From a virus: a DNA stretch of 64,000 nucleotides. The stretch spans positions 3,616 to 67,615 of IMG/VR virus record IMGVR_UViG_3300005836_000042; one strand, written 5' to 3'. The notes beneath the pieces are model-generated. The model had not been told where the DNA came from and did not search any database. It saw nothing but the letters and a program-made list of their open reading frames with translations. A program made the translations under genes and the position numbers. Shown here one piece after another: positions 8,165 to 57,913 of this stretch; the stretch's first letter is position 1; every line of letters starts with the position of its first letter.

Positions 8165-8533
8165 ATGATGAACCCATCTGGGCTCAGGAGGGCGATGATG
8201 GCGGCAGCTGACGCGGAGAAGAAGAAGAAGCCGGTTGCCCCGACGTCAGCCGACGTTGCACGGCGTGGTGCGATCAACAGCGGTGGCTTCGAGGGAGAGC
8301 AGGCCCGTGCGCAGGCTGCGCGGGAGAAGGCCACCGGAGCCGCTGCCGCTCAGGAGCGGGCGGCAAACGAGGGGTCCTACGCAGGGCTGGGGCTCGCTGA
8401 CCGGGCGGCAGCCGAGCGGCTGATCCGGAGCGGCGAGGCGAAGACCCAGGACGAGGCTGCGGGGATCATCAAGAAGCGGAAGGCCAAGCCGACGACTGCG
8501 GGGGCGCAGGCGAAGGCGCTGGAGAAGCCATGA
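8165..8533 (+). CDS. Ala/Lys-rich hypothetical virion-module protein
   Basis: 122 aa; AGAQAKAL near the C-terminus. Confidence 0.8.
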   Translation: MMNPSGLRRAMMAAADAEKKKKPVAPTSADVARRGAINSGGFEGEQARAQAAREKATGAAAAQERAANEGSYAGLGLADRAAAERLIRSGEAKTQDEAAGIIKKRKAKPTTAGAQAKALEKP

Positions 8534-8763
8534 TGATGGACATGCCCGACGAGACGCTGCCCACGGCATCGCTCCAGGCGAACGCGCTGGAGTCGCTCGC
8601 ACCGGACTCCGAGATCAAGCGCATGGAGAAGATGCTCGCGCAGCAGGCTGCGAACGCAATGCAGCCTCAAGGTGAGGAGATGGGTGAGGCTCCAGACGCC
8701 GACGAGCCGCTATCGCTGGAAAAGCTGATGGCGAGCGGCGAAGAGCCCGACATCTACGACTGA
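8530..8763 (+). CDS. acidic hypothetical protein
   Basis: 77 aa, ATGA overlap; contains ASLQANAL. Confidence 0.75.
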   Translation: MMMDMPDETLPTASLQANALESLAPDSEIKRMEKMLAQQAANAMQPQGEEMGEAPDADEPLSLEKLMASGEEPDIYD

Positions 8764-8903
8764 TGCCGCACACCCACGAGTGTCCGCTCTGCGACTCGAA
8801 GTACAGCTGCAGCGACCTGGGCTGTGAGGAGATGCCCATCAACATCTGTGAGGAGTGCATGAAGGGCATCGACGAAGTTCCTGCGGAGGAAGTCGTTCAT
8901 TGA
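8763..8903 (+). CDS. 46-aa Cys-rich microprotein (MPHTHECPLCDSKYSCSDLGCEEMPINICEECM...)
   Basis: Read manually (below the ORF-track cutoff); TGATG coupling; 6 Cys. Confidence 0.65.
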   Translation: MPHTHECPLCDSKYSCSDLGCEEMPINICEECMKGIDEVPAEEVVH

Positions 8904-9139
8904 AGCTCATCTCCTGTACGAAGTGTGGGGCGAGACGGATTGGCCCCAAGAACGACAAGCACCCCAAGGGTGCGCCCGTCGTGATGGCCTTTTTCAGCAG
9001 CCCTGGCGCGATCGTCATGAAGTGCCACCGCTGCACGCACGCGATGAAGCTCACGGCAGTCGAGTTCCACCGTCTACCGGTGTTGACTGCTGGGGAGCTG
9101 GAGGACCTTGGCTTCTCTAGCCAGCTTGCTGTACAGTAG
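8900..9139 (+). CDS. Mu Com-like zinc-ribbon protein
   Basis: GGAGGA SD then TTG; MKLISCTKCG...IVMKCHRC matches the Com-type CxxC...IxhKCxRC pattern. Confidence 0.55.
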   Translation: MKLISCTKCGARRIGPKNDKHPKGAPVVMAFFSSPGAIVMKCHRCTHAMKLTAVEFHRLPVLTAGELEDLGFSSQLAVQ

Positions 9140-9177
9140 TCCGAACTTGAACGGGTCTACCCCGTGAGAGGAACCAG

Positions 9178-10284
9178 ATGCCTGACGATTTCGAGCCTGA
9201 CGTAGCGGGTGGCGGCGAGCCAGCGGGTGACGAGCCCGTTGTCGACGAGACCTCTACCCCTGAGGGGGAACCGGCTGAACCCCAGGGTGACGGTGCTGCC
9301 GAGGACACCACTTCTGACGTAGACGATCAGCAAGGTTCAGAGTCGACCCCTGCAGCAGGCCGCAGCGCGAGACTCCAGAAGCTCCTGGCGAAGTACGGTG
9401 GGGACGAAGACCAGATGGTCGACGCCTACTTCGAGCAGGCCAACTCGATGAGCGAACTGAAGCAGAAGTTCGACGAGCTGGCCGAGAAGTTGACCCAGAA
9501 GCAACTGACCCCCGAGGAGGAGGCGAGGCAACTCGCTGAGGACCCGGACGTCAAGGAGATCGGTGTCGAGTTGGCAAACCTCGACGCTGAGATCAAGGAT
9601 TACGGAGCACGGGACAAGCAGCTGGTCTCCGAGTACGGTCAGTTGGAGACCACGATTCAGGCTCTGACGGCGAAGTTGGAGTTCGCCCCGGACGACCTGA
9701 CGAAGATGGAGCTGAAGCGAGAGATCGCGGAAGCCAAGCGTGAGCAGAAGGACGTGGCGCGAGACTGGCGTTCCAACCAGTCTGCTCTGCGTAACAGCAA
9801 TCGTCTTCTGCAGAGCGCCATCCGGGACTACCGTGAAGCGGAATCCAAGGCCAAGGCGAAGAGGGAACAGGCAAAGAAACTGGAGTGGGACCAGAAGGCA
9901 GACGCAGCAGCGACGAAGAAGGACTTCTCCGATTCGATCCGGGCCGAGGCAGCCGCGTACGGCATCGAGCAGAAAAGCTCGAAGTACTCGATGATCCAGC
10001 AGGCGATTCAAAACCGGCTGGTGACCTACCTCCGCTCGCTTGGCGAAGAGGCTGAGGGGATCGACATCCCCGAGGCTGTCGGGCTCCTGTTCAAGGAGTA
10101 CGCCGAGGGCATGGGCCACAAGCGTCGTGGACGTGCTCTCGCCCAGGCAAAGGACGCGACTCGGTCGAAGCCCCTTTCTCCTGACCTGAAGGCGACTGAT
10201 CCGAAGGCTCCACCCAAGGACAAGACCGGCAACTACTGGGACCCCAAATTCGTCCGGGAGCGGGCGAAGCAGATGTTGGGGTAG
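9178..10284 (+). CDS. capsid scaffolding protein
   Basis: Acidic disordered N-terminus, long coiled coil, directly upstream of the capsid gene. Confidence 0.8.
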   Translation: MPDDFEPDVAGGGEPAGDEPVVDETSTPEGEPAEPQGDGAAEDTTSDVDDQQGSESTPAAGRSARLQKLLAKYGGDEDQMVDAYFEQANSMSELKQKFDELAEKLTQKQLTPEEEARQLAEDPDVKEIGVELANLDAEIKDYGARDKQLVSEYGQLETTIQALTAKLEFAPDDLTKMELKREIAEAKREQKDVARDWRSNQSALRNSNRLLQSAIRDYREAESKAKAKREQAKKLEWDQKADAAATKKDFSDSIRAEAAAYGIEQKSSKYSMIQQAIQNRLVTYLRSLGEEAEGIDIPEAVGLLFKEYAEGMGHKRRGRALAQAKDATRSKPLSPDLKATDPKAPPKDKTGNYWDPKFVRERAKQMLG

Positions 10285-10311
10285 TTGCTGTCGGTCGGGT
10301 GAGGTTCTCTC

Positions 10312-11622
10312 ATGGCTGGTGAGTTCCAGAACGCTGGGGTGGCGATCAAGACCGTTTACCCCACGAAGGCCCTGGAGCCGATGATCAACGAGGAGGCCCC
10401 GTTCCGGGCCAAGCTCTCCAAGAGCATCCCCGCTGGTGGAAAGGTCTCCGAGGGGGACGTCAAGTTCAACGGCATCCTGGCGCTGCCGCAGAACGTCGCA
10501 CAGATCCAGGACGGTGACGACCTGCAGGACGCGGGCGAGCGGTCGGAGGTGCAGTTCAACCTGCGGCCGACGATCTTCACGGCCACCATGAACATCGGGT
10601 GGCTGACCCGCAAGGCGATCAACAGCAACAAGAGCGGCTTCAACGGCGGTGAGGTTCGTCGCCGCACCGAGGAGACGGTCGGCAACCTGGGCAAGTTCAT
10701 CGAGTCGCAGTACGTGGGCTCGTACGGGAACGGCTCGCGTGGCTTCGTGGAGACGAGCGCTGCGGGTTACCTGCAGCTGCGGCTCCCGGAGACGACCAAG
10801 CTGGTTCGGCAGGGGATGAAGGTCTCCGTCCGCGTCAGCACCAACATCGCCACCGTTCGGCACGCTTCGCTCGACGGCATCCGTGTGTCGAGCGTCAACC
10901 CCGACACCCGGCGCATCACGCTGACCGGCGTGGCGGACCACACCGCAGGCGGCACCGTCGTGGCCGACGACCAGATCATCGTCACCACGAAGGCCTCGCA
11001 GGTGATCACCAACGTGTTCGCCAACTCGCTTCGTTCGCTGATCGACGATGGCACCGTGGCGCAGTACATCCACGGCGTCGACCGCACCACGGCGGGCAAC
11101 GAGAAGCTGAAGTCCTACGTGGACTCCAACGGCGGAACGCCGCGTGATCTCACCGAGCAGATCCTCATCAAGGCCAACCACGCCATCCGCGAGGGCGTGG
11201 GCAAGCGGCCCACCGACATGTGGTGCGGGCCTGGGCAGTTCCAGAAGTACATCGACTTCGTGGCTCCGGACCGGCGCCGCGCGGTTTCGGGCGGGACGTA
11301 CGACAAGTCCACCGGCTACAAGTCGGAGGACGAGTTCGTGCACTACGCGCCCGGTGTCGCGCTCCGCATGAACCTCAGCTTCGACGTCATCCCCCGCGAG
11401 CTGTTCCTGATCTCGTGGGACACCATGTTCCACTACCTCGCGCAGGAGATGCAGTGGGTCGACGACGACTCGATGCTGCACCTCGCGCTGGGCACCTCGG
11501 GCGCCAGCTACCGTGCCCGGTGGGACAGCTTCATGTCCTCGATGGAGAACATCGGCTGCGACATGCCCTCGGCCAACGGAGTGATCCGCGACCTGAAGGC
11601 ACCGGACATCGGCGACGTCTAA
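10312..11622 (+). CDS. major capsid protein (HK97 fold)
   Basis: 436 aa after scaffold, very strong codon bias, DLTEQIL...PTDMWCGPGQFQKY P-domain-like motif. Confidence 0.85.
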   Translation: MAGEFQNAGVAIKTVYPTKALEPMINEEAPFRAKLSKSIPAGGKVSEGDVKFNGILALPQNVAQIQDGDDLQDAGERSEVQFNLRPTIFTATMNIGWLTRKAINSNKSGFNGGEVRRRTEETVGNLGKFIESQYVGSYGNGSRGFVETSAAGYLQLRLPETTKLVRQGMKVSVRVSTNIATVRHASLDGIRVSSVNPDTRRITLTGVADHTAGGTVVADDQIIVTTKASQVITNVFANSLRSLIDDGTVAQYIHGVDRTTAGNEKLKSYVDSNGGTPRDLTEQILIKANHAIREGVGKRPTDMWCGPGQFQKYIDFVAPDRRRAVSGGTYDKSTGYKSEDEFVHYAPGVALRMNLSFDVIPRELFLISWDTMFHYLAQEMQWVDDDSMLHLALGTSGASYRARWDSFMSSMENIGCDMPSANGVIRDLKAPDIGDV

Positions 11623-11640
11623 GCATCTCGGGTAGGGCAC

Positions 11641-11685
11641 GTGGGGGCGAGAGATCGCCCCCGCAACCCAGCGCTAGGGCTGGGT
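11641..11685 (+). terminator. tandem hairpins after capsid gene (terminator or mRNA stabiliser)
   Basis: GTGGGGGCGA-GAGA-TCGCCCCCGC (10 bp, GNRA loop) and ACCCAGC-GCTAGG-GCTGGGT; no U tract. Confidence 0.5.
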
Positions 11686-11705
11686 AACTCGAAAAGGAAC
11701 AGGAC

Positions 11706-12506
11706 ATGAGCGTTCATCGCAGGCACATCGGGTTGGGGGCCGTCTCCCCCAAGAAGCTCTCCGCCGTTCTGCGCAACGGCAAGTACATCGAGGAGTACTT
11801 CAACTACCAGCCTCGCTGCACCGCGCCGAACGGCTACTCGGATCCCAGCGGGGTCGACACGGAGACGTTCCGGGTCCACCTCAAGAACGGTGGCAACCTG
11901 CTGGGGACGTACATCGGAACGGGTACGCAGCTCGCTCCGAAGCTCACGGCTGGCGTCTTCGAGATCTCGCTCGACGAGGCCGCGAGCGACGGCGTCGAGT
12001 ACAACCCCGTCAGCGAGCTGGGCGTGGGTGTTGCCTACGGGCAGCACGTCCTCACTCGTGGTGCGCAGCCTGCGCACTTCATTCGGGCGAAGCTGAAGGT
12101 GGTGGACGTCTCGGAGATCTCCTACTGCGCGGTCGGCTATCGCAAGGCGGGAGCGGTCGTGCCGGTGTTCGACAACTACACAGACGCGGCCATCATCAAG
12201 CTCGACTCGGGTACGGTGAAGATCGACACGATCACCAACAACGCAGCGACAGCGACTACGACTACCACGAAGACCGTGGCGGATGGAGTGGAGTTCGAGC
12301 TGAAGGCGGTGCTGGAGAAGTACGCAGTGCGCTTCTTCTGCAACGGGAAGGAGTACGGCTCCAAGTTCGCCATCTACTCGGGTGTCACCAGCGTCATCCC
12401 CATGCTGTTGGTGTTCCAGAAGGCTGCTGGCGCGGGGTCGGTGGTCAGCTGCTCCGAGCTGGAGGTTGGCTTCCTGGACGACGTCGACGACCACAGGATT
12501 CTCTGA
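11706..12506 (+). CDS. putative minor capsid/decoration protein (beta-rich)
   Basis: 266 aa directly after the capsid gene; beta-strand-rich composition. Confidence 0.5.
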   Translation: MSVHRRHIGLGAVSPKKLSAVLRNGKYIEEYFNYQPRCTAPNGYSDPSGVDTETFRVHLKNGGNLLGTYIGTGTQLAPKLTAGVFEISLDEAASDGVEYNPVSELGVGVAYGQHVLTRGAQPAHFIRAKLKVVDVSEISYCAVGYRKAGAVVPVFDNYTDAAIIKLDSGTVKIDTITNNAATATTTTTKTVADGVEFELKAVLEKYAVRFFCNGKEYGSKFAIYSGVTSVIPMLLVFQKAAGAGSVVSCSELEVGFLDDVDDHRIL

Positions 12507-12517
12507 GGAGAGAAGTT

Positions 12518-13285
12518 GTGGATCTGGCTAGCTGGGCGGATGGGATCGACATCGAACAGGTGCCGGTAGCCCCCAGCGTGCTGCCGCGAGGCCGGGTGCA
12601 GTTGCGGGATTCGTTCCACACCGCACCCGGCTATCGCGAGATCGGGATGTTCTACTCGTGTGTCCCCGATCCGGTCTACCCCTGGGACCCGAAGGTGGTG
12701 CGGGAGATCTGGAAGTTTGCTCCCGATGCGGTGCCGATGTGGGTCCAGTGGGTTTTCATGAGTCCCCAGGAAACCGGCAACCCTGAGATCGTGGTCTTCG
12801 GGCGTCATGCGCTTGGGCGCTCGATCAAGAACCAGCGTGCGTACCTGGAGCCGTTTCGGGTGCACATGCCCACGATGCCGTGTCAGGGCCTCAAGTTCGA
12901 CCGTCCAAACGACATCTGGTTCATTCATCAGGGGTTGATGGGCCAGCACCCCAAGTACAAGGATCTGCCGGGAGACTACCTCCCGTTCGATTCTGATCTC
13001 GTGAAGAAGGTGGCGGACATCTCCGAGGGCTTCAAGATGTCCGACAAGGAGTACCGCGAGCGTCTCGAAGACGTGATGATCAAGCAAGTCGTTGGTCGAG
13101 AGATGCGGCGGGTGATCCACAACAGGTTGGAGAAGGCGTACGCACGCAAGCAGGTCTTGAACTACGTGGACCGGCAGTACGAGAAGGTCTCGGAGAACGA
13201 GGCGCGTGACTACTACCTGGGGCGTGGACGACGTCGGGAGCGGAAGCCCTTTGTCGATGTGGGGTCTACCCCCACAAGGAGATGA
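12518..13285 (+). CDS. hypothetical protein
   Basis: 255 aa with GAGGAG SD. Confidence 0.75.
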   Translation: MDLASWADGIDIEQVPVAPSVLPRGRVQLRDSFHTAPGYREIGMFYSCVPDPVYPWDPKVVREIWKFAPDAVPMWVQWVFMSPQETGNPEIVVFGRHALGRSIKNQRAYLEPFRVHMPTMPCQGLKFDRPNDIWFIHQGLMGQHPKYKDLPGDYLPFDSDLVKKVADISEGFKMSDKEYRERLEDVMIKQVVGREMRRVIHNRLEKAYARKQVLNYVDRQYEKVSENEARDYYLGRGRRRERKPFVDVGSTPTRR

Positions 13286-14109
13286 GCATGGCGTCCCCAG
13301 CACAGCCGTACATTCCGAACTTCGGGTACAAGCCGCAGGCGTTCACCGTCCACAATCCCTCTCCAGAGGCGGTCAACGTGCGGTGGGCGGGACTCGCGTT
13401 CACGGTCCCTCCTGCGGACACGCTCTCGCACAAGCCGGGGAAGTACGACGATGGTGGGGTCATCCCTGGAACGCTTTCCCTGGAGGACGCCTACAGCTTC
13501 GGGCCGGATGGGAACCTGCCGAACCCTGGTGCGCCGCCCAACTGGTTCGCAGCCGAGGCGGTCAGGAACATGTTGGGGATCGACTCGCAGGGGATCGCGA
13601 CGAGTCCCTACGCGAAGCGAGGGCTCAGCGTGCTGCCTCCAAACCCGACGCGGGCGCAGGTGGCAGAGATCGCTGCGGCTGGGATGAAGCGCTACCACCA
13701 GTTCCTGGTGGACTGGGCGCAGTACACCGTCATGGCGTGGGCGGACTCGGCGGAGCGGGCTCGGCGTGCGGGGGTGGCGGCGGTGCCTCCGGGACGGGAC
13801 TACTACAAGGCCGAGATCATCATCAAGAAGCACAACGAGGAGATGAAGAAGATGCTGGGGTACGTGCCTCAGCAGGCTGAGCAGGAGATCGCGGACGACG
13901 ACATCGAGTTCCAGGCCTACGCCATTGCTGAGGCGATGAAGATCGCCAAGACCGTGGCAGACGACAAGAACGTGAGCAGCGCTGAGCTGGCCGAGAAGAT
14001 GATCGAAGACCCCAAGATCCGGCAGCAGCTGATGAAGAAGTACCGCATCCGCAGGGTGGGTCATCTCGACGTGCCCACTGTTGGGGCCGAGGGAGAAGAC
14101 CCGCAGTAA
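13282..14109 (+). CDS. hypothetical virion-module protein
   Basis: 275 aa; AAGGAG SD, likely start ATG 13288. Confidence 0.75.
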   Translation: MSMASPAQPYIPNFGYKPQAFTVHNPSPEAVNVRWAGLAFTVPPADTLSHKPGKYDDGGVIPGTLSLEDAYSFGPDGNLPNPGAPPNWFAAEAVRNMLGIDSQGIATSPYAKRGLSVLPPNPTRAQVAEIAAAGMKRYHQFLVDWAQYTVMAWADSAERARRAGVAAVPPGRDYYKAEIIIKKHNEEMKKMLGYVPQQAEQEIADDDIEFQAYAIAEAMKIAKTVADDKNVSSAELAEKMIEDPKIRQQLMKKYRIRRVGHLDVPTVGAEGEDPQ

Positions 14110-14118
14110 GGGGGTGGG

Positions 14119-14829
14119 GTGCCGTACGCTCTCGTCGATGATCTACTCAGGGACGTTGCGAGCCACTACGATGACACCGATGCGACGGCATTCGTGTTGC
14201 CGACGTCCAAGCTCAACCGCTATCTCCATTACGTTCAGCGGACGCTCGACGAGATCTACAACTTCAAGCCGTGGCCCTGGAAGATGGCGTACAAGACGTT
14301 GCAGTTCAACGTCAGCCCAGCGAACGGCAGGGAAGCTGCGGTCCCCAAAGACTTCGCCAATGTAGGACCGAACGGAGCGCTGTTCGACCCACGGGGAGAG
14401 CCGTGGGCCGAGATCTCGTTCCGGGACATGATCGCGCTCCACGCCAGTGGCTCTGGCCAGTCGAACCACCTCTTCGCGGTCGGGAGAAGGCAGGCGGACG
14501 CTTCTGCTGCGGTAGGGGATGGTGGGATCAAGAACGCCGACTCCAGGGGCCTGCTGATCCCGGATCCCAACCGAACCGACGTCTTCACGCTGTTCTACGA
14601 GACGTCACCGCCCAAGGCTGCACTCGGGGCGGTCATCCCCATCCCCGAGTCGATGCACAACGCTCTGCTGTTGGGGACGGTGGCGAAGCTCCAAGAGGGA
14701 AAGGCTGATCCACGAGACATCTGGCGGGCGGAGTACGTGACTGCGCTCTCCAAGCAGGTTGCTGCGCTCATGCCGTTGACGTCGAGGATGCGGCAGATGC
14801 CGATGACGACAGGGAGGCGAATGTGGTGA
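14119..14829 (+). CDS. head-tail adaptor (P22 gp4 / tail tubular A-like)
   Basis: Helical N-terminus ending WPW, xPxDF motif, C-terminal IPESMHNALLLG; expected position. Confidence 0.65.
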   Translation: MPYALVDDLLRDVASHYDDTDATAFVLPTSKLNRYLHYVQRTLDEIYNFKPWPWKMAYKTLQFNVSPANGREAAVPKDFANVGPNGALFDPRGEPWAEISFRDMIALHASGSGQSNHLFAVGRRQADASAAVGDGGIKNADSRGLLIPDPNRTDVFTLFYETSPPKAALGAVIPIPESMHNALLLGTVAKLQEGKADPRDIWRAEYVTALSKQVAALMPLTSRMRQMPMTTGRRMW

Positions 14830-15617
14830 AGAAGGTTCTTGCAGGGCTGGCACTCCTGCTGCTGGCTGCGCATCCGGTGGGAAGCGCAGAGGCGGTCCAG
14901 AGCGCGTTTGCCTACAACATCGACGTCGATTCAGCGACGGTCACGTACTTCAAGCACGTCGGTCAGAATGGGTCTCCCTTCGGAGGCTCGATCCTGGGGC
15001 CGGGGACCATCAAGACCACGGGCTCGTCGACTACTGTTGCGGAGGCGGTGGCAGGGAGCAACCCCTTCACCGACATCGCAGTTGGTGATGTTCTCGAAGT
15101 GGCGCCGATCGGCACCAGCGGGCGGAGAACCTACCTGCGGGTGGATGCCCGAGCGAGTGCTGCCTCCATCACGGTGGACACCGCAGTCGATCTTGGGACC
15201 GGAGTGGCGTGGCGCTACTGGAGGCTGCAGTCTGGGACCACAGTCAACGATGGGTGGTTTCCTGTCAGCGGGGCAACGAGCGTCACGATCGGGGTCTACT
15301 GGGTCCAAGGAGATCTCGATGCGTTGCAGGTGATCTGGCAATGCAGGAGCGCAGCTCCAGGATCGAAGCCAATGCAGGTGTTCCCAGGGCTCACCTCGGA
15401 GTGCGGCTTGGGGGGCAGTGCTGCGACGGTTCCCGGCTTCTGTACCTATCCGGTTGCGCAGGTGGGCCAAGCGACCGCGACGACAGTGCAGATCGTCTTC
15501 GGCAACTACTCGGAGTGCCGCGTGGGCTTGAAGTACACGACGACTGACACCAGCGATGCCGGGGCCAACCTGGAGAAGGTGATGGTCACCGTCGACACTT
15601 CGCGGAGCACTCCATGA
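14823..15617 (+). CDS. signal-peptide-bearing, beta-rich tail-like protein
   Basis: MKKVLAGLALLLLAAHPVGSAEA N-terminus; GTIKTTGSSTTV...FTDIAVGD motif typical of tail proteins. Confidence 0.7.
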   Translation: MVKKVLAGLALLLLAAHPVGSAEAVQSAFAYNIDVDSATVTYFKHVGQNGSPFGGSILGPGTIKTTGSSTTVAEAVAGSNPFTDIAVGDVLEVAPIGTSGRRTYLRVDARASAASITVDTAVDLGTGVAWRYWRLQSGTTVNDGWFPVSGATSVTIGVYWVQGDLDALQVIWQCRSAAPGSKPMQVFPGLTSECGLGGSAATVPGFCTYPVAQVGQATATTVQIVFGNYSECRVGLKYTTTDTSDAGANLEKVMVTVDTSRSTP

Positions 15618-16105: not shown

Positions 16106-17370
16106 GAAAACTGGTAGCTGGGCTCTTCTTGCTGGCGGCTCCTGCTGCTGCGCAGGTTTCCTCCATCCCTCCGCAGTCTTCTTCAGCTGGTGTAGGGACT
16201 GAGGCGGTTCACCTGACCCAAGCCTGGACGGCACCTGCGTACGGTTCCGAGCTGGTGACGAATGGCACCTTCACTGGCAGCGCGACTGGGTGGACGCTCG
16301 GTGGTGGAGGGGGCGCACCGGACTGGGCCTACGCGGCAAACGCTGTCTCACACACGAGCGGCGGCGGAACGGCAACGCTCACGCCTTCGACGCCAATCGT
16401 TCCATCGGTCGGGACCGACACGTTCTACATGATCACCTTCACCCTCTCTTCGGTGACGAGTGGAACGCTGACGGTTAGCTTCGCTGGAGGTTCAGCGACC
16501 TACCGCGACAGTGGGACCTACGACACCTTCTTTGGTGTGGCCTCCACTGCCAACTTAGCATTCACTCCAACGAACGACTTCGCTGGGACCATCGACGACA
16601 TCTCGGTCAAGACCGCGACGAAGGCCAGCTCGGCGTTCAGCATCCCGCACAACACAGGGTCTGATGGCATTGTCGAGCTGCGGTCGAAGGGAAACGACCT
16701 CTACTTCGGAGCGTGGTCTGCCCCATGGGCAAACGCGAACACGTACTGGAACGTGACCCTCGGGTGGGGCGCTGGATTCAACTTCGGCGGCGGCGGGCCA
16801 GCGGTTCTCAACCGCGACAACGTCTGCATCGGCACCGACTCCTGCAACTGGTCGAGCCGCCTCAACGACAGCGTCTTCGTTGGTGCCTTCGCAGGCAGGT
16901 TGGTGTCGGGCAACAGCGCGAACAACACGGCAGTCGGATCTGGCGCGCTTCAGCTCTACCCCACCGGAGCCATCGTGAATGGCGACACGATGATCGGCAC
17001 CAGCACGGGGCAAAACTGGAATTCGGACAACAGCACTTGCGTGGGATACAACAACTGCATAACCGGCACGGCTCTCAACAATGTCACCGTGCTCGGCTAC
17101 AACATCACCCCCGTCACCGCCAACACCGCAGTCGTTGGCAACGGGAGCACCACCGATGTGTGGATCGGGGATGCTGACGGCTCAGGTGCTGCAGCCGCGA
17201 AGCTCCACACCAAGGGCATCGAGGACACGGGTACCACGTTTGCCTCGCTCGGGACTCCAGCGAACGGGACGCTGATCTACTGTTCTGACTGCACGATCGC
17301 GAATCCTTGCGCCGGAAGTGGTACTGGTGCGTTCGCCAAGCGTCTCAACGGCGCCTGGGTGTGTAACTAG
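16099..17370 (+). CDS. signal-peptide-bearing fibre/adhesin-like protein (CBM-like domain plus beta-helix/autotransporter-adhesin-like repeats)
   Basis: MLRKLVAGLFLLAAPAAA-Q; ELVTNGTF...W...GTIDDISVK CBM-like block; NTAVGSGAL-type repeats. Confidence 0.7.
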   Translation: MLRKLVAGLFLLAAPAAAQVSSIPPQSSSAGVGTEAVHLTQAWTAPAYGSELVTNGTFTGSATGWTLGGGGGAPDWAYAANAVSHTSGGGTATLTPSTPIVPSVGTDTFYMITFTLSSVTSGTLTVSFAGGSATYRDSGTYDTFFGVASTANLAFTPTNDFAGTIDDISVKTATKASSAFSIPHNTGSDGIVELRSKGNDLYFGAWSAPWANANTYWNVTLGWGAGFNFGGGGPAVLNRDNVCIGTDSCNWSSRLNDSVFVGAFAGRLVSGNSANNTAVGSGALQLYPTGAIVNGDTMIGTSTGQNWNSDNSTCVGYNNCITGTALNNVTVLGYNITPVTANTAVVGNGSTTDVWIGDADGSGAAAAKLHTKGIEDTGTTFASLGTPANGTLIYCSDCTIANPCAGSGTGAFAKRLNGAWVCN

Positions 17371-17837
17371 TGACAGAGGACATCTTCCGGGTGCTGGTGA
17401 AGGAGGAGGGGATCAAGCTCGATCCCTATCGCGACCACATGGGCTGGTGGACGATAGGCATCGGGCACCTGATCGACCGCAGGAAGGGTGGTGGGTTGCC
17501 TCCGTGGGTGAAACCCAGCTTCCCAATCACTCAGACTGAGGCCGAGGAGATGTGCCGTGACGACATCGCCACGATGGGGGTTGGGCTGAAGAACCAGCTC
17601 CATTGGTGGGAGAACACGAGCGACGTCGCCAGGAGCCTGCTGGTGCTGATGGCCTTTCAGCTGGGGGTTGGTGGAGTTCTTGTCTTCAAGCGGATGCTGG
17701 AAGCTGTGAAGGGTGGGGATTTCGATCTTGCGGCGAAGGAGATGCGGGACAGCGCGTGGTGGCGGGTGCAGACACCACAGCGTGCTGAGCGCATGGCGCA
17801 GGCGATGGAGACGCAGTCGCTGAGGGGGTTGCTCTAA
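17370..17837 (+). CDS. T4-type lysozyme (GH24 endolysin)
   Basis: E-x8-D-x5-T catalytic triad (EGIKLDPYRDHMGWWT), TIGIGH, SAWWRVQTPQRAER. Confidence 0.93.
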   Translation: MTEDIFRVLVKEEGIKLDPYRDHMGWWTIGIGHLIDRRKGGGLPPWVKPSFPITQTEAEEMCRDDIATMGVGLKNQLHWWENTSDVARSLLVLMAFQLGVGGVLVFKRMLEAVKGGDFDLAAKEMRDSAWWRVQTPQRAERMAQAMETQSLRGLL

Positions 17838-18151
17838 TGCCTTTGGGTGGAAGTATCGCGTATGGGGGCAACCTGCTGGGTGGAACTGCAAGCGCTCAGC
17901 AGACTCCCCCGCAGATGCCACGGCCTCAACGTCCGATGGACCCGAACAGCCAGATGGGGCAGTTCAAGCAGAAGGGCCTGCAGGGAGGCCAGCGTGGGCT
18001 TCGTCGTCCACGCGCGAGACAGCAGGCGGATGCGTTGTCGCAGCAAGGAAGGCCCCCGCAGCAGGTGACGGATGCTCTCATCAACATGTTGGGGTTCGAC
18101 GTGAACGACCCGATGTTGAGGTTGAACCCGAGGACAGGGCGTAGGGTCTGA
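17837..18151 (+). CDS. Gln/Gly/Pro-rich hypothetical protein
   Basis: 104 aa, TAATG coupling; contains ARQQADAL. Confidence 0.75.
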   Translation: MPLGGSIAYGGNLLGGTASAQQTPPQMPRPQRPMDPNSQMGQFKQKGLQGGQRGLRRPRARQQADALSQQGRPPQQVTDALINMLGFDVNDPMLRLNPRTGRRV

Positions 18152-18873
18152 TGGCGCACAGCGATCCGTACGAGGACTGGAAGGAACAGGGCAGGCCCGG
18201 TGGCAGCTACGAGGCGTGGCTTAGCGGGCAGACGACTGCCGCGACGGATGCTCCACAAAAACAGAACATCGCCCTACCTCAGACGGCTCAGCCTGCTGAG
18301 CAGAAAGCGGGGATCGGTGGCCCAGGCTGGAACGAAGACTTCGACCAAGCATGGGCGCGGCGCGTCCTTGACAACTCTCAGCTCAAGGATGCGTTCGGGC
18401 TCTCCGACACCTCGTCGCTGCGTGACGAGGAAACACGCAGGCAGATCAACCGGTGGCTTCGTGAGCACCGTGGAAGCGGAAGCGATAGCAGCCCTGCCGC
18501 AGCTGGAGCGACGACTGCAGCTGCAGCGGTTCCTGCTGCTGGCAAACCAGCTAGCACAACTGGCACAGGAGCTGGGGCGAAAGCACCGACTCAACCCACC
18601 GGCACGACGGGGAAGGCTACCGTCGTTTCTGGAAAGGAGACAGCAAGCGCTCAGCAGGCTCCAAGCTCGGGTCACCTCATTCTAGGTGGGGTTCGCCCGC
18701 CAATGGGACTCGTCTACGGGAACACGGTGGTGCCTGCGGCAGGGGGCTCGATCCCTGCGCTCCAGGGACCCTGGTGGCCGTCGTATCCTCCAGGGAATGC
18801 CGCTAAGCTAGCGGTTCGACCGGGTACTGCATCAGCGCAAGCTGCAGCCCTGACTGAACAAAGGGGGACGTGA
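18151..18873 (+). CDS. Ala/Thr/Gly-rich hypothetical protein
   Basis: 240 aa, TGATG coupling; ASAQAAAL near the C-terminus. Confidence 0.75.
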   Translation: MAHSDPYEDWKEQGRPGGSYEAWLSGQTTAATDAPQKQNIALPQTAQPAEQKAGIGGPGWNEDFDQAWARRVLDNSQLKDAFGLSDTSSLRDEETRRQINRWLREHRGSGSDSSPAAAGATTAAAAVPAAGKPASTTGTGAGAKAPTQPTGTTGKATVVSGKETASAQQAPSSGHLILGGVRPPMGLVYGNTVVPAAGGSIPALQGPWWPSYPPGNAAKLAVRPGTASAQAAALTEQRGT

Positions 18874-20006: not shown

Positions 20007-20007
20007 A

Positions 20008-20358
20008 ATGCTCGACGACGATTCCATCCCTCCAGGCAAGCTGAAGCGACGAAGTGGAGACGTGATCTCTGCACAGAGGATCGTCATGGCTCTTCTTGCG
20101 TCGACGCCACTGACGATTCCTGGGGTGGTCAAGGGAGGGCAGATGGTCCTCGACATCCACACGCAGTGGATCGAGATGCAGAAGGACCACGAGCGGCTGC
20201 ACGAGATCGAGAGACAGCTCTCCGTTGCGGACCCGCACGAGAAGCGGTTGGACTCGTTGGAGCGGTGGAAGTGCGTCCTAGGGTGGGATCCTCCGAAGAC
20301 TCGGCTCAGAGGGAACACGGCGCAGTGCCATGATGGGCAACGCGATGCCGATCAGTAA
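20008..20358 (+). CDS. hypothetical protein with hydrophobic segment and coiled coil
   Basis: 116 aa; RIVMALLASTPLTIPGVV then heptad-like region. Confidence 0.6.
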   Translation: MLDDDSIPPGKLKRRSGDVISAQRIVMALLASTPLTIPGVVKGGQMVLDIHTQWIEMQKDHERLHEIERQLSVADPHEKRLDSLERWKCVLGWDPPKTRLRGNTAQCHDGQRDADQ

Positions 20359-20524
20359 GTACGACCCGGAGTTCGGTGGGAAGCAGGGCGCAGCCGAGGA
20401 AGCACACGCCAACATGATCAAGGAGTACGGCGCGAAGAAAGGCGAGAAGGTCTTCTACGCGACGAAGAACAAGCGGAAGAAGAAACTGAAGGCGCACGCG
20501 CAAGCGGCTGCGCTGGGGGGATGA
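20342..20524 (+). CDS. small Lys-rich protein
   Basis: MPISKY...KVFYATKNKRKKKLKAHAQAAALGG; start ATG 20345 (track gives 20330). Confidence 0.75.
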   Translation, partial: AMPISKYDPEFGGKQGAAEEAHANMIKEYGAKKGEKVFYATKNKRKKKLKAHAQAAALGG

Positions 20525-20525
20525 G

Positions 20526-20711
20526 ATGGCCTACACGGGGTTCAAGAAGCTCGTCGCAGAGGGCGTCCCTCCGGGCGCCGCTGCGAACATCGGACGCAAG
20601 AAGTACGGCAAGGAGAAGTTCCAGAAGGCTGCGGCGCAGGGCAAGAAGATGAAGGGCATGAAGCCGAAGAGCAAGGCTCATGCTCAAGCCAGCGCGCTGG
20701 AGGGAATGTGA
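20526..20711 (+). CDS. small Lys-rich protein
   Basis: 61 aa ending KSKAHAQASALEGM. Confidence 0.8.
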   Translation: MAYTGFKKLVAEGVPPGAAANIGRKKYGKEKFQKAAAQGKKMKGMKPKSKAHAQASALEGM

Positions 20712-21025
20712 GCACAGTCGGTGTGGGCAGCGGCTACAACCCGCTGTCGGTGTGGCAGGACCCCAACGGGGTACGCAAGTTCTCCAACGCGAAGCTGCAG
20801 AGCGCCATCGACGACGCCATTGCAGCTTCGGGGGACTCGCACTTCGTCGCGGTTGCGCATCAGGTCTACAACCAGAACGGTGACCAGATCGAGAACGTGA
20901 CGAAGGTCTCGCTCCTGGTCAAGCTCGACAGCGCAGGCAAGTTCTCGATCGCTGCTGGCGGATACAAGGACTGGACGAAGGGTGATCTGGGCGCCGAGGC
21001 CAAGGTCATCTGGAAGCCGTTCTAA
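20708..21025 (+). CDS. hypothetical protein
   Basis: 105 aa, GTGA overlap. Confidence 0.7.
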   Translation: MSTVGVGSGYNPLSVWQDPNGVRKFSNAKLQSAIDDAIAASGDSHFVAVAHQVYNQNGDQIENVTKVSLLVKLDSAGKFSIAAGGYKDWTKGDLGAEAKVIWKPF

Positions 21026-21036
21026 GGGAGGACACG

Positions 21037-21249
21037 ATGTCAGACGTCAAGCTCAGCAAGGACTACAACCCCTGGATTTCGTTGTGGAAGGGACTGCAAC
21101 CGCTCCTGGTCACGGCGGTGGTAGGAGCGCTCACGACCTACGTCCAGAACCTGGATGTGGCGACTGCGGTTTCGCTGGGTCTCCCTGTGGGGATCGCGGC
21201 TTTCTTGGTTCCAGCGTTGAAGAACTTCCTGAAGAACCGCAACAACTGA
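21037..21249 (+). CDS. holin-like membrane protein
   Basis: 70 aa, two hydrophobic segments, basic C-terminus, GGAGG SD. Confidence 0.55.
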   Translation: MSDVKLSKDYNPWISLWKGLQPLLVTAVVGALTTYVQNLDVATAVSLGLPVGIAAFLVPALKNFLKNRNN

Positions 21250-21250
21250 G

Positions 21251-22576
21251 ATGAAGCAGCCCCGTCAAGGTCGGACGTTCGAGCGTCTCAACGGTACGGA
21301 CGGGTTTGCCTGGGGAGGGATCGCCACCAAGGTCGACCCTGCAGGCAACCCGCCGGAACGCCCCCGAGACACCGTCAACGTCCGTCATCAAGGCGGGGTC
21401 ATCGTCTCGCGGCCTTCGTTCAGGGGGGACGGAGTCTTCATCCCCCTGATCCCGATCCACTACCTGAAGACGCCGAGTGCTTCTGAGAACCCACCGTTCG
21501 TGGTGACCAACCGTGCGCGGTGGGTTCCGCATTGGCTGGCCGAGCACAACAATGCTGCCGGGGTGAGGCTGTGGTGCATTGCTGAGGCAGCGGTGCCCAA
21601 CGACTTCGCTCGGATCATGTTCATCGACACCGATGCGGACCTGTGCGTCCAGACGCTGGCCTCGATCAGGCAGCAGCAGACTGGGCATACCTTTCCGATC
21701 GAGAAGTTCGACAACGAGATCTACTTCGGGGACATCAACGGGCTCAGGAAGCTCTACTTGATCCCGTCGCGGGAGGGAGACAACTCGCCTCCGATCGACA
21801 CCGACCAGATCGCGGACGACGTGATCGTCTCCACGCCAGGGTTCCGGGTGGCGGCGCTGCAGAGCCATGCTGGGCTTCTGTTCTTCGCCATCGCAGGCTC
21901 GCCCGTGGGGGAGATCTACGCCTGGGATGGTCAGAGCGTGGGGTTGGAAGTCGCGATGGTGGGCAGCTCTGGCGACGTGGGCTGCCACATGGCGGTCTAC
22001 AAGGACACCCTCGTCGTTGCGGTTCGGGACTACATCGGGGCCGGGCAGGGAGCCTTGCTCGTCAGAGACGCGACAGGAGCATGGACGACGCACACGCTCG
22101 CGAGCTTCAACGTCTCACGCTACCCCAACAGCATCGTCGAGTACGGGAACCTGCTTTACGTCGTGGATGGGGCTGACCAGATCCATACCTGGGATGGGAG
22201 CAACATCGCGTTGGCCCACACGCTTCCGCTGGGGTCGAGCGCGTTGAACGTGATCGCGAAGTTGGGGAGGCGGCTCTACTTCCCCTACAGCGACGGCTCT
22301 CAGATCGAGCTGGGCTACGTCGACGATCTCGACGCAGCAGGCTTCATCGACATCGGCACGCGGGATCCGGTTCGGGCAGACACCTTGCCGCCTGTGGCCA
22401 TGTCGCACTACCGGGGTAGGTTGTGGATCTCCTTCGATGGTGGTGCTGGGGCAGCGCTTGTCATGTGGCACTCCCAGCAGTTCATGCCCTTCTCTGGCTG
22501 GCAGTCATTTGGGGATGATCAGGCCTTCACGGATGAATCCATCTCCTACCTGATCACCAACATGAGGAGCCTCTAG
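21251..22576 (+). CDS. tail protein, beta-propeller-like (nozzle N-terminal-like)
   Basis: GG...NVRHQGGVIVSRP N-terminus typical of nozzle/tubular B proteins; repeated beta blades. Confidence 0.6.
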   Translation: MKQPRQGRTFERLNGTDGFAWGGIATKVDPAGNPPERPRDTVNVRHQGGVIVSRPSFRGDGVFIPLIPIHYLKTPSASENPPFVVTNRARWVPHWLAEHNNAAGVRLWCIAEAAVPNDFARIMFIDTDADLCVQTLASIRQQQTGHTFPIEKFDNEIYFGDINGLRKLYLIPSREGDNSPPIDTDQIADDVIVSTPGFRVAALQSHAGLLFFAIAGSPVGEIYAWDGQSVGLEVAMVGSSGDVGCHMAVYKDTLVVAVRDYIGAGQGALLVRDATGAWTTHTLASFNVSRYPNSIVEYGNLLYVVDGADQIHTWDGSNIALAHTLPLGSSALNVIAKLGRRLYFPYSDGSQIELGYVDDLDAAGFIDIGTRDPVRADTLPPVAMSHYRGRLWISFDGGAGAALVMWHSQQFMPFSGWQSFGDDQAFTDESISYLITNMRSL

Positions 22577-24756
22577 TGTACGCAGTCGGAGTCACCGCTT
22601 CAGTGGAAGCCAACATCATCACGGGAGGCGGTGGAGTCTACCTCGTTGGCCAACAGGACGGTGGCTGGGGGAGGCTCGGGGCGGGCTGCGTCGACCAGAA
22701 GGAGGGGCTTGGGCAGAACCGTGGACGTTGGTTCTCGCCGCTCCCGTTCGGAGTGGCTCCAACGGGAGAGTACCCCTCTGTTGTCACCTACAACGGGCGC
22801 ACCTACGTCTGTGGTGGGTACTCCTACCAGATCGTCATCGACGAGCACCACAGGATCTGGAAGCAGGGGATTCGCGCGCCCGAGGCAGCACCGGCGATCA
22901 CTGGGGCGGCTGGTGCGACCAACATCGCGTACCTGTCGTGGTGGGACGAGCTGACAGGAGAACGCAGCCCGCTCAGCAAGGGGTTCGCCATCGGAGATGC
23001 TGTTCCGAGAACCTGGAACACCCTGCCCATCGCACCGCCTGACGACGTCTTCATCGGCAACGAGCTGATCACGGCGGATCTTCCCTATGGGACTGGCAGG
23101 ACGAAGCCCTTGGCGATCCGCTATCCCTACGGCGGAAAGATCCGTCAGCTGCGTGGAGGTGACCGCTACACTCTGACTGGGACGACGGTGGGCATGGTCG
23201 TCTACCCAGGCTGCGTGGACGATGCTGTGGCGCCTGCGCCTGGGCCGACCGAGCCGGTGATCCTGTGCGACCCGTTTGGTGAGGTCAGCGCGCTGCAGAC
23301 AGGGATCACGGTCTACCCCGTGTCGCGGCCGACGCATCTGGAGTTGTGGCTGGCGATTGCCGGAGACCTGCCACGGCTGGCGATGCGGGTGCCTGCAGGA
23401 ACGACGACCGTCGTCGAGAGCAAGGGCATCGCTGATCTTGGGGAGGCGTTCATCACCCAGTTTCAACGCTTCCCTCGCTGCTCGATGAACGCCATCTACC
23501 ATGACCGTCAGATCGTGGCTGGTGACCTGGAGAACCCGGACACCGTCTACTTGAGTGCCCTCTACCAGCCTGAGCGCTTCGAGGGGCTCAGCTTCCGGAC
23601 TCGGGATGGGAAGGCGGTCACAGGGCTGTTGGCGACGAGGGACTTCTGCCTCGTCACCACGCGCAGCGGTGCGTACATGCTGCAGGGGTACACCGACAAC
23701 GACTACACCATGAACCCCATCGACCAGTCGATCGGGGCGGTGGGGCACCACTGCAACATCCTGATCCACGGGAACCCGTACGTGTGGAGCGAGAAGGGGC
23801 CGTACATGTACAACGGCGGTTGGCACCCGCTGAGCCCTGAGAACCGCTGGGTGCCTCCGGTTGGTGGGGACAAGATGATCGCCACCGAGGACCCCTACTA
23901 CAACACCTACATCGTGTCGCAGGGCTATCGGGCGGCGAAGGCTTTCAACGAGCCGTTCGCGACGTGGAAGGAGTCGGGAGCGTTCGAGGGGCTCTACGAC
24001 CCGGATCTGGTTTCCCCAACTGAGCTGCCTGAGCTGTTGAAGTACTTCGCGGTGCTTGACTACACTCTGGTGCAGCCGGAGACGGGTGGAGCTGTGCAGC
24101 CCGCGCGGTTGGGATGGGACTCGGGGCAGGCCTGGATCTTCCCCAACGAGAGCCCTCCGGACAGCTTGCTGCTCGATGACGAGGTCTTCATGAAGTACCT
24201 GCGGAACAGGTACGGCAGGGGCAACCTCTATCGCATCATTGGGAACAGGAAGAGCGAGTACGTCGCTGCGGACTGGCTCGATGATCCTCCGACGTCGCCG
24301 TCTTTCTGGGTCAGTGGGATGTTGCTGCCTGAGGCCCTGATCGAGCTGGACTTCGGACCTGAGGAGGAGAGCCAGATCATCACGGCGTTCGACTATCTGG
24401 GGGATGGTGGCGGCTACCTCATGGAGCAGAAGCAGATCAAGCGGCTCTGGTACTACATGAGGATGCTGGATGGAGCCGTGCAACTCTACGTGGGGCCTGG
24501 GCCGGGGTACTGGGGGAGCCGGATGTACCCAACCACTGCCCCTGCAATCGTCAACACGGTGACCTTCGTGAACGGGGAGTACCGAGACGGGGTGGTTGAG
24601 GCCCCACACGCCGACGTCATCATGCCGCTTCTGCCTCAGAACTTGAGCGGGCGGGGGATGTGGCTCAGGCTCCGAGGGACGAAGCTGTTCTTCTGTGGGT
24701 ACGGGGTCGAAACGATCTGGGGTTCCGAGGTGATCAACACTCTCGCCAGCCCTTGA
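22576..24756 (+). CDS. tail nozzle/stabilisation protein (P22 gp10 / tubular B-like)
   Basis: YHDRQIVAG...TVYLSALYQPERF...VTGL...IGAVG propeller motifs; precedes ejection-like genes. Confidence 0.65.
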   Translation: MYAVGVTASVEANIITGGGGVYLVGQQDGGWGRLGAGCVDQKEGLGQNRGRWFSPLPFGVAPTGEYPSVVTYNGRTYVCGGYSYQIVIDEHHRIWKQGIRAPEAAPAITGAAGATNIAYLSWWDELTGERSPLSKGFAIGDAVPRTWNTLPIAPPDDVFIGNELITADLPYGTGRTKPLAIRYPYGGKIRQLRGGDRYTLTGTTVGMVVYPGCVDDAVAPAPGPTEPVILCDPFGEVSALQTGITVYPVSRPTHLELWLAIAGDLPRLAMRVPAGTTTVVESKGIADLGEAFITQFQRFPRCSMNAIYHDRQIVAGDLENPDTVYLSALYQPERFEGLSFRTRDGKAVTGLLATRDFCLVTTRSGAYMLQGYTDNDYTMNPIDQSIGAVGHHCNILIHGNPYVWSEKGPYMYNGGWHPLSPENRWVPPVGGDKMIATEDPYYNTYIVSQGYRAAKAFNEPFATWKESGAFEGLYDPDLVSPTELPELLKYFAVLDYTLVQPETGGAVQPARLGWDSGQAWIFPNESPPDSLLLDDEVFMKYLRNRYGRGNLYRIIGNRKSEYVAADWLDDPPTSPSFWVSGMLLPEALIELDFGPEEESQIITAFDYLGDGGGYLMEQKQIKRLWYYMRMLDGAVQLYVGPGPGYWGSRMYPTTAPAIVNTVTFVNGEYRDGVVEAPHADVIMPLLPQNLSGRGMWLRLRGTKLFFCGYGVETIWGSEVINTLASP

Positions 24757-24781
24757 GGGTGTAGACTTTAGAGGGTTTCCG

Positions 24782-25642
24782 ATGCCTTACGGCTATACGA
24801 ACGATCAGTGGAACTCGATGTCGCAGGCCGACCGCACGGCAGCGAGCCAGAAGGCTGCTGGTGGTGCAGGCTCCAACGACGCGAGCATCGGTGCTGCCAA
24901 CACGGCTCTGAAGCAGCAGGGGCTGCCGGGGCAGTACTCCAACACCGGCTATCAGGTTCTTGGGGGGTCGAAGGCTGGAGTTGGCTCGTCCCCCTCGCCA
25001 GCTGCTTCTGCTCTGTCCAGCATCCTGGGCGGAGGCGGTGGGCCTCCGGCGACGGCGAGCCAGATGGCTCAGCAGTCGGGGGTGCCGTCTGCTGGGGGCA
25101 TCGGTCTGCCGGTCGGTGGGGGGACGGTGGGCGCGGGAAGCGGAGCGGTTCCAGCTGCGGCTGGGAACTATTCCGCGACGGCGCAGCAGAACCCGTACAT
25201 CGCACAGCTGATGAAGCTGTCGCAGCAGCAGTTCAACACGCCGCTTGATCGAGAAGCTGAGCTGAGCAAGCTGCGTCGAGAGCAGAGCGTTCGGATGAAC
25301 GAAGCTCGGCAGGGTGGAGCGCAGGCTGGGCGCGGTGGGCTGTGGGGCTCGCAGCTGCAGGGGATGGCGCAGCAGAACGAGCAGGAGGTCGCGGGGACCA
25401 TCAAGGGCTTCAACGACCGCGAGACCCAGGCGAGGAACGCGCTGCTCTCGACGATGACGGGGATCGCGGGAGCGGGCACCAGCGACATCGCCTCGCAGCT
25501 GCAGGCACAGCTTGCTGCACAGCAGCTCAACGAAAATGCGCGACAGGCGAATCTTGACTACAACGCGAAGATCGCGCTTCTTCCCTATCAGGCCCAGGCG
25601 ATGCAGCTGCAGGCTGCAGCGGACCTGATGCGGTTGCTCTAG
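24782..25642 (+). CDS. putative DNA-ejection/internal virion protein
   Basis: Gly/Ala/Gln-rich, follows the nozzle. Confidence 0.55.
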   Translation: MPYGYTNDQWNSMSQADRTAASQKAAGGAGSNDASIGAANTALKQQGLPGQYSNTGYQVLGGSKAGVGSSPSPAASALSSILGGGGGPPATASQMAQQSGVPSAGGIGLPVGGGTVGAGSGAVPAAAGNYSATAQQNPYIAQLMKLSQQQFNTPLDREAELSKLRREQSVRMNEARQGGAQAGRGGLWGSQLQGMAQQNEQEVAGTIKGFNDRETQARNALLSTMTGIAGAGTSDIASQLQAQLAAQQLNENARQANLDYNAKIALLPYQAQAMQLQAAADLMRLL

Positions 25643-25652
25643 GAGGCCAGAA

Positions 25653-26201
25653 ATGGCGACCTTCACCTCTGGCTTCAACTACCCCACGGGCCAGCTCACC
25701 GCTTCCATGCAGGCTGATGCACTCAGCGGCTCGCCGGGGTTCGACACGGGAACGGGTGGGCTGCTCAACGCCATCCTCGCGGAGAAGCGGCGTCAGCAGG
25801 CGCTCGCCATGGACGCGCAGCGTCAGGCGAAGCTCGACGCTGAGCGGCAGGCTGCGATGGCCCGCCAGGAGTCCGCGAGGCAGCAGGGAAACGCGGCTCT
25901 GGCGATGCAGCAAGGCGATCCCTACACTCAGATGCAGCGGGCGCGAAACGTCTTTGGAAGGGACTACTCCAACTTCGCTGGTGCAATCGGGGGGCCGCAC
26001 GCGACCAACTACCAGCGTGCCATGCGCGAGACGATCGCTCCGATGTCGATCGGCTTTGGGAAGCTGCCGCAGTACACCGGGATCACAGATCTGGTGAACG
26101 CCAGCTCTGGCGCGAGTGCTGCTGCGGTTGAGCAGGCAGGAGCCAATCAGCGTAGCAAGGATCTGAACGCACGGTTGCAGGCCGACGCACTCCGGAGGTA
26201 G
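25653..26201 (+). CDS. putative DNA-ejection/internal virion protein
   Basis: Ala/Gln-rich; ASMQADAL near N-terminus and ARLQADAL at C-terminus. Confidence 0.55.
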   Translation: MATFTSGFNYPTGQLTASMQADALSGSPGFDTGTGGLLNAILAEKRRQQALAMDAQRQAKLDAERQAAMARQESARQQGNAALAMQQGDPYTQMQRARNVFGRDYSNFAGAIGGPHATNYQRAMRETIAPMSIGFGKLPQYTGITDLVNASSGASAAAVEQAGANQRSKDLNARLQADALRR

Positions 26202-57871: not shown

Positions 57872-57913
57872 TGGATCCTCCGGAGTCGGCGCGGTCAGCG
57901 GGCGCAAATCCCG

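Follow-up and report, generated by a model that had tools for sequence, protein, structure and literature searches.

This study concerns a short peptide motif, A-x-x-Q-A-x-A-L, that recurs in the late proteins of an uncultured phage. The DNA examined (the window) is 64 kb of the 67,840-bp single-contig virus record IMGVR_UViG_3300005836_000042 from IMG/VR; it has 62% G+C and belongs to a lineage that is podovirus-like in gene order. The motif occurs eight times in seven proteins. It is real, selected at the protein level, biased toward protein termini, modular, conserved within the clade, and evolving in concert within genomes. We give an even chance to the reading that it would act as a protease-independent docking tag for virion-internal proteins, and the motif is called the tag below.

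The tag and its seven carriers

The eight exact matches listed in an earlier sequence-only reading were all located at the coordinates claimed there; they lie on the + strand, each in the frame of one of seven plausible genes. The tagged genes form three groups in conserved places. One follows the portal gene, one follows the lysin gene, and the third belongs to the internal-virion-protein cluster, next to the gene for a 2600-residue protein. A 122-residue post-portal protein (gene 8165-8533) contains AGAQAKAL (8498-8521) 3 residues before its stop, and an acidic 77-residue protein (gene 8530-8763) contains ASLQANAL (8566-8589) at residues 13-20. The 104-residue protein encoded after the lysozyme gene (gene 17837-18151) has ARQQADAL (18014-18037) at residues 60-67, and a 240-residue protein (gene 18151-18873) has ASAQAAAL (18829-18852) 6 residues before the stop. 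The latter gene has weak coding statistics (G+C at third codon positions, GC3, of 0.60) but was accepted as real because it has conserved homologues. Two Lys-rich proteins of 64 and 61 residues (genes 20330-20524 and 20526-20711) carry AHAQAAAL (20492-20515) and AHAQASAL (20676-20699), 2 and 3 residues before the stop, respectively. The 182-residue protein of the internal-virion-protein cluster (gene 25653-26201) has two copies, ASMQADAL (25701-25724) at N-terminal residues 17-24 and ARLQADAL (26169-26192) 2 residues before the stop. A degenerate half-copy, TASAQQ (17885-17911, +), and similar pieces at 18640-18666 and 24836-24862 (TAASQKAAG) were left out of the tag count; they are possibly decayed tags.

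The carriers are small and mostly basic, with isoelectric points (pI) of 8.0-11.9 and one acidic member (pI 4.1). None had a Pfam or PHROG match above the curated cut-off, the only hits being Pfam matches at E 0.065-0.067 for the 64- and 61-residue proteins. They had been described as unrelated, and with the motif masked every carrier-carrier blastp E-value exceeded 0.4. Residues 77-107 of the 122-residue carrier, just ahead of its tag, form a helix-turn-helix-like pair with a predicted local distance difference test score (pLDDT) of 73-86. This pair is conserved across the family (GLGLxDRA...R.GEAKT.DEAA).

Rich as the carriers are in Ala, Gln and Lys, the matches might simply be a chance product of composition. 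The test proteome comprised 91 proteins and 20,217 residues. Shuffling produced a mean of 0.11 matches when done within each protein and 0.15 when done within 30-residue blocks, which keep the local Ala and Gln richness. None of the 3000 composition-preserving shuffles reached eight matches (0/3000), even with the local procedure. Nineteen alternative arrangements of the same five letters occurred at most once each. A relaxed pattern, [AGS]..Q..[AG][LIM], added only four matches across the whole proteome, and the remaining five frames of the window contained a single match, in a non-coding frame on the - strand (60646-60669).

A scoring matrix was also built from 34 sites of other genomes only. 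With this matrix the eight sites of the window were the top 8 of 20,217 positions (12.4-22.4 bits); the next-best match scored 10.3 bits, and shuffles gave 0.28 hits at ≥12.4 bits. The matrix trained on other genomes is an independent confirmation of the eight sites. Together with the shuffles and the conservation of the tag in homologues, it has already refuted the chance explanation, whose probability we consider negligible.

Placement within the carriers is likewise nonrandom. Five copies are C-terminal and, as had been noted, end 2-6 residues before the stop (3, 6, 2, 3 and 2 residues; p = 8e-5 for C-terminal placement). The two copies said to lie near an N-terminus start at residues 13 and 17, so that 7/8 copies are near a terminus (p = 4e-4), and the eighth is internal (residue 60 of 104). 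The statement that most copies follow Lys or Arg held in part. The directly preceding residue is Thr in 4/8 copies and Lys or Arg in 3/8, but Lys or Arg is present within six residues upstream in 6/8.

Codon usage differs between sites, in agreement with the sequence-only reading (GCG, GCA, GCT and GCC; CAG and CAA; CTG, TTG and CTC). Given these different codons and the in-frame position of every copy, a DNA-level signal was ruled out. Nor could the C-terminal copies be put down to the ribosome-binding site of the next gene, which overlaps only residues after the Leu and leaves A..QA.A unexplained.

Conservation, modularity and concerted variation

Megablast against 50,697 phage records found no close cultured phage, and the best tblastn matches had 21-29% identity. 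Distant relatives of the window phage match the SU10 adaptor family. Relatives were obtained by capsid-based scans of IMG/VR (7 loci) and of Joint Genome Institute (JGI) metagenomes (17 loci), from species genomes (one 67,051-bp contig in a metagenome-assembled genome), and by look-ups of single proteins. The samples are metagenomes of freshwater and sediment. IMG/VR single-protein scans with the 441- and 423-residue proteins gave no matches.

In about 20 metagenomic relatives the homologous proteins have the tag at the corresponding terminus, with drift at its variable positions. In the family of the 122-residue carrier the C-terminal tag is kept in relatives L006, L010, L011, L007, L003 and L002, and the family's proteins end in AAVQAKALAKP, AGTQAGALEK, ASAQAGALEKP, AAEQAGAIE and AGGQADALEGAVPPE. 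Tag residues A112, Q115 and A118 make up 3/11 invariant columns of the family alignment. The family of the 240-residue carrier shows the same behavior at greater distance, with A227, Q230, A233 and L234 invariant in 12 homologues, down to 25% identity, and variable low-complexity sequence on either side. The 77-residue protein has a homologue in L006 with AAGQAEAL at residue 21, and the 104-residue protein has one in L010 with ARTQAQAL (blastp E 2.4e-06). Counterparts of the latter, identified by their post-lysin position, contain AAQQARAL in L038 and C-terminal AEQQAEAL and AGDQTDAL in L002 and L015.

In the close relative L038 all five homologues checked keep their tags with the variable positions changed. 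Its homologue of the 64-residue protein (58 residues) ends in AKDQAKALGG, and that of the 61-residue protein (63 residues) ends in AAKQAEALKGA. A homologue search with the 182-residue carrier returned only the carrier itself, and homologues were found later via synteny. The L038 protein has AGMQGEAL at residue 17 and AQMQANAL 5 residues from its end, AQMQANALNSRGF. L038 (European Nucleotide Archive, ERZ25039490 contig_5452) lies on a 143-kb contig, about twice a 68-kb genome, which may be an assembled concatemer.

More distant genomes were also examined. About 11 tags occur in the 67-kb syntenic relative (capsid identity 66%), distributed over the three clusters known from the window: post-portal, post-lysin and upstream of the giant protein. 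In the last cluster two proteins have their copies near the N-terminus, at residue 29. AGQQAGAF, at residue 29, is the copy in the protein that takes the position of the 182-residue carrier. L030 (capsid identity ~42%) also retains the tag, and L028 (~37%) has a C-terminal AKQQIMALEGR as well as TAGSQVKALES. Two post-portal proteins of L029 (~32%) share a tail that lacks the Gln.

The tag can be added to proteins that exist without it. One tagged small protein of the relatives belongs to a large metagenomic family of 40-60 residues with the core ...AYVYGTMRKTGWKPSREK (AYVYGT family). More than 226 members were found and 120 were inspected, nearly all of which end just past the core. The tag is appended only in the members nearest this clade (C-terminal AGDQARGLE and AEQQAKGLA), and other lineages have different tails. 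L028 and L030 also have tagged small proteins of the DUF6496 type. As AYVYGT and DUF6496-type proteins are tagged only in this clade, the tag is an add-on and not part of any one fold. A short terminal peptide that is portable between proteins is what characterizes an encapsulin-type cargo-loading peptide, and the tag has this property. Some AYVYGT...KTGWKP members (P0003, P0005-P0007 and P0047; P0013, P0016, P0039 and P0050) have conserved C-terminal tails of their own (GN[K/Q]AMxRF[H/K]; HHSPPTNxKFDNPDRY), which could be tags of other phage groups. In L026, an alternative AYVYGT tail common to neighboring genes was not seen in 13 kb.

A consensus was derived from 41 curated instances, [P/G]-[T/S/K]-A-[G/S/A]-x-Q-A-x-[A/G]-[L/I]-[E/D/S]. 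Tags of one genome resemble each other more than they resemble those of other genomes; identity was 4.77 of 8 positions within genomes versus 3.86 between genomes (label permutation p<0.0002). The window has A[H/S/R]xQAxAL, L004 and L005 have AGDQAxGL, and L001 has [I/V]GxQxxG[L/I]. In the 67-kb relative Phe occupies position 8, where it is rare elsewhere, in 6 of ~11 tags. Such joint drift would be expected if a common reader co-evolved with all tags of a genome.

If the tag were a degron, serving the degradation or quality control of carriers that fail to assemble, it would also be expected at exposed termini, where bacterial degrons of the ssrA/ClpX type sit. Known C-terminal degrons, however, need a free end of the ...LAA type, and the distance of the tag from the C-terminus varies from 0 to 10 residues, with N-terminal and internal copies as well. 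The concerted drift points instead to a phage-encoded reader. A resemblance to ssrA-type degrons was rejected on the residue pattern, and a degron function of any kind appears highly improbable to us.

Candidate functions and receptors

The capsid targeting sequence (CTS) of T4 is an N-terminal peptide of internal proteins IPI-III and Alt that binds the prohead scaffolding core and is cut off by the prohead protease gp21; its carriers are loaded into the prohead and ejected later (PMC7411985). Like the CTS, the tag is a short terminal peptide common to otherwise unrelated proteins, and small basic proteins are among its carriers. Unlike the CTS, it is mostly C-terminal with some N-proximal or internal copies, has another consensus, and occurs in a genome in which no prohead protease was detected; packaging of its carriers is presumed. 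Encapsulin cargo-loading peptides, as described in PMC8346489 and PMC11866011, are short, usually C-terminal, portable peptides that dock cargo inside an HK97-fold shell without proteolysis. The tag is similarly short, mostly terminal and portable, and docking to the capsid is a candidate function for it. Encapsulins usually load one cargo type, whereas here another consensus is distributed over 7-11 carriers per genome in a true tailed-phage genome.

Head proteases provide a second kind of C-terminal signal on a non-shell protein. Duda et al. are said to have reported in 2013 that a C-terminal segment of HK97 gp4 directs this head protease into the procapsid. A C-terminal prohead-targeting region was inferred for the head maturation protease gp245 of SPN3US (PMC7411985, section 3.5). 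Those are single proteins with tails of their own, in contrast to one consensus on many unrelated proteins. P22 is a podovirus whose portal and internal or ejection proteins enter the procapsid via the scaffold (PMC5529062 and PMC4992974). For its ejection proteins, literature searches turned up no recognition peptide in common, unlike the shared peptide on the carriers here. Set beside known capsid-targeting and cargo-loading peptides, the tag stands out by its mostly C-terminal position, its use at either end, its apparent independence of a protease, and its occurrence in a podovirus-like lineage.

Conserved positions 1, 4, 5, 7 and 8 of the tag fit one face of an alpha-helix (i, i+3, i+4, i+7), and its small residues would suit tight helix packing. 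The tag is probably an amphipathic helix. AlphaFold2 predicted a helix at residues 112-120 in the 122-residue family, with low confidence (pLDDT ~57, mean 63; six-sequence alignment). We arrived at the docking-tag reading from the helical spacing, the copies at the extreme C-terminus, the fact that no protease was found, and the carrier genes' location next to the portal gene and within the internal-virion-protein cluster. Unrelated late proteins would carry a short linear peptide for docking on a flexible N- or C-terminal end, with Phe admitted beside Leu and Ile at position 8, and one common receptor would read all copies of a genome. Most likely the tag would bring small, mostly basic internal proteins and proteins of the ejection cluster, a set open to change, into the procapsid or internal core during assembly, and would not be removed by proteolysis. 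The receptor could be the scaffold, the portal, the capsid interior or the giant internal protein.

The sequence-only reading had proposed a common docking code that loads cargo into the procapsid. The shared, conserved, modular and concerted nature of the motif and the presence of carriers in the internal-virion-protein cluster make a common docking code likely; loading into the capsid would be its putative role. That the tag binds something, that its partner is in the procapsid, and that the carriers end in virions is what we infer.

That reading had also offered a shared maturation site as an alternative. The tag would then be a proteolytic processing site at which an undetected head protease, a DUF2201 metallopeptidase/VWA protein (56615-57907, -) or a host protease trims termini and separates fused domains. 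There is precedent in T4-like phages, whose shared terminal head-protein motifs double as cleavage sites (PMC7411985). N-terminal copies 12-30 residues into the protein are propeptide-like, some relatives have a copy at a domain junction in addition to the C-terminal one, and the metallopeptidase-like gene is kept in the 67-kb relative. Against this, Pfam and PHROG searches of proteins of ≥70 residues plus the 64- and 61-residue carriers detected no prohead protease family, in the head module or elsewhere; DUF2201 was the only peptidase-like gene, and it is located among the early genes. Cleavage patterns of the L/I-x-E prohead-protease type are not present at the tags. The scaffold is separate from the capsid protein, on which no leader was apparent, although no test aimed at one was made. 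A cut at the many copies only 0-3 residues away from the C-terminus would remove almost nothing, and the helical spacing is not the extended pattern that proteases need. We judge a processing site to be improbable, and less likely than the docking tag.

Several observations count against the docking-tag reading. In L007, L003 and L002 the 122-residue-family protein is longer and has its second tag copy at the domain junction, which could mean that two tagged proteins have fused or that a polyprotein is cleaved there. We looked for the N-terminal domain of these two-copy proteins as a separate tagged gene elsewhere and did not find it. Some clades have Gly at tag positions 2 and 7, which weakens the helix argument. 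The instances used to measure concerted variation were curated by hand and include some paralogues. Finally, the two carriers beside the lysin gene could be lysis-related rather than virion proteins.

Three structural proteins are candidate receptors. The portal protein (911 residues; 5420-8155, +) was identified by tblastn matches to annotated portals and by its position in the gene order. The scaffolding-like protein (368 residues; 9178-10284, +) has an acidic N-terminus, a coiled-coil body and a conserved C-terminal helix. The major capsid protein (436 residues; 10312-11622, +) matched the major capsid protein of PDB 6j3q in a profile comparison (E 1.4e-11). Co-folding of the capsid protein (117-row alignment), the scaffold (11 rows) and the 122-residue carrier (6 rows) scored 0.21 in two runs, the mark being 0.32; such a score counts neither for nor against binding. 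A conserved copy of the tag in the portal was dismissed, as the relaxed matches of three portals do not align with each other. The capsid N-terminus, GEFQNAGV, was rejected as a tag copy as well; it is unconserved, and its Gln is lost in L007 and L004/5.

A shared docking motif need not be read inside the procapsid. Its hub might be an assembly chaperone such as the conserved Zn-ribbon protein (8855-9139), the giant ejection protein while the ejectosome assembles, or a host protein encountered once ejection has taken place, and all evidence for a common reader counts equally for such a hub. In most relatives with the interval recovered, including L028, the Zn-ribbon gene separates the tagged post-portal genes from the scaffold gene, and the tagged 182-residue protein adjoins the giant internal protein. 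This giant protein (2600 residues; 27382-35184, +; PHROG 6651 'internal virion protein', E 8.4e-28) is the alternative hub. No repeated receptor-like domains were found in it, apart from one 16-residue repeat, and nothing singles out any particular hub. A host target would not readily explain the genome-specific joint drift of all tags. We regard a hub outside the procapsid as unlikely, though not as improbable as a processing site.

The bacterial beta-clamp was considered as a further binding partner. Beta-clamp-binding motifs (Q-L-[S/D]-L-F type) have Gln, large hydrophobic residues at positions 2 and 4, and Phe or Leu at position 5. The tag, Q-A-x-[A/G]-[L/F], has small residues at positions 2 and 4 in 27/41 and 40/41 instances, and this candidate was rejected.

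We propose, tentatively and at a little less than an even chance, that in this SU10-related lineage a helical, protease-independent tag usable at either terminus brings a rapidly changing group of 7-11 unrelated proteins, small basic ones and ejection-cluster members among them, into the procapsid, and that tag and receptor co-evolve, as in the change from Leu to Phe at position 8. To our knowledge, how internal and ejection proteins are selected for entry into a podovirus procapsid is poorly understood outside T4. If the proposal is true, a tailed phage without a head protease would here have a portable encapsidation tag of natural origin. Its 8-11-residue consensus would be a sequence rule that predicts virion-internal (injected) proteins in the metagenomic phages of the clade. 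It would also help in the search for the receptor, and a tag this small and portable could be used to load foreign proteins into phage capsids. For mapping the receptor by covariation, the concerted drift within genomes offers natural data.

Gene order and neighboring genes

Late genes of the window are on the + strand and early genes on the - strand. The large terminase (3104-4759, +; PHROG 38, E 8e-99) precedes the portal gene, and small genes fill the interval between portal and scaffold. Among them, the Zn-ribbon protein has four Cys, is 80-94 residues long among relatives, and could be a regulator or an assembly factor. In the distant relatives L028 (7935-8285) and L029 (1362-1784) a GroES-like Cpn10 protein is found among these small genes. 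The scaffold-like gene is directly upstream of the capsid gene, whose family comprises 234 cluster representatives at E≤0.001. An open reading frame upstream of the terminase in L005 (812-1333; the same one in L004, 2379-2900) has a 35-residue segment 51% identical to the highly conserved capsid N-terminus; its product might mimic the capsid N-arm, as another route of joining assembly.

Downstream of the capsid gene are adaptor- and tail-like genes and three genes for signal-peptide proteins, followed by a T4-type lysozyme (17370-17837, +; Pfam Phage_lysozyme). More small genes come after the lysozyme, then tail-like proteins of 441 and 726 residues, and a cluster of 286-, 182-, 387- and 2600-residue proteins closes the late gene order. 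The repeat in the 2600-residue protein is a near-identical 16-residue sequence, VLPE[D/S]AVSLVAEPIVE, encoded at 28528-28575 and 28816-28863, 96 residues apart. The lysin slot itself is exchangeable; in L010, L002 and L015 the T4-type lysozyme is swapped for a non-homologous protein, and the tagged downstream genes are conserved. The replacement sequence (L010, 17826-18392; L008, 3694-4176; L015, 9211-9690) ends in ..WEWGG.W....MHFQ.C..Y, and our guess is that it is a different kind of peptidase.

The early genes include a split family A DNA polymerase and a helicase. The DUF2201 gene is paired with a gene for a MoxR-like AAA ATPase (58841-59875, -). Both look highly expressed (GC3 0.88-0.90), and the MoxR-like gene, too, is kept in the 67-kb relative.

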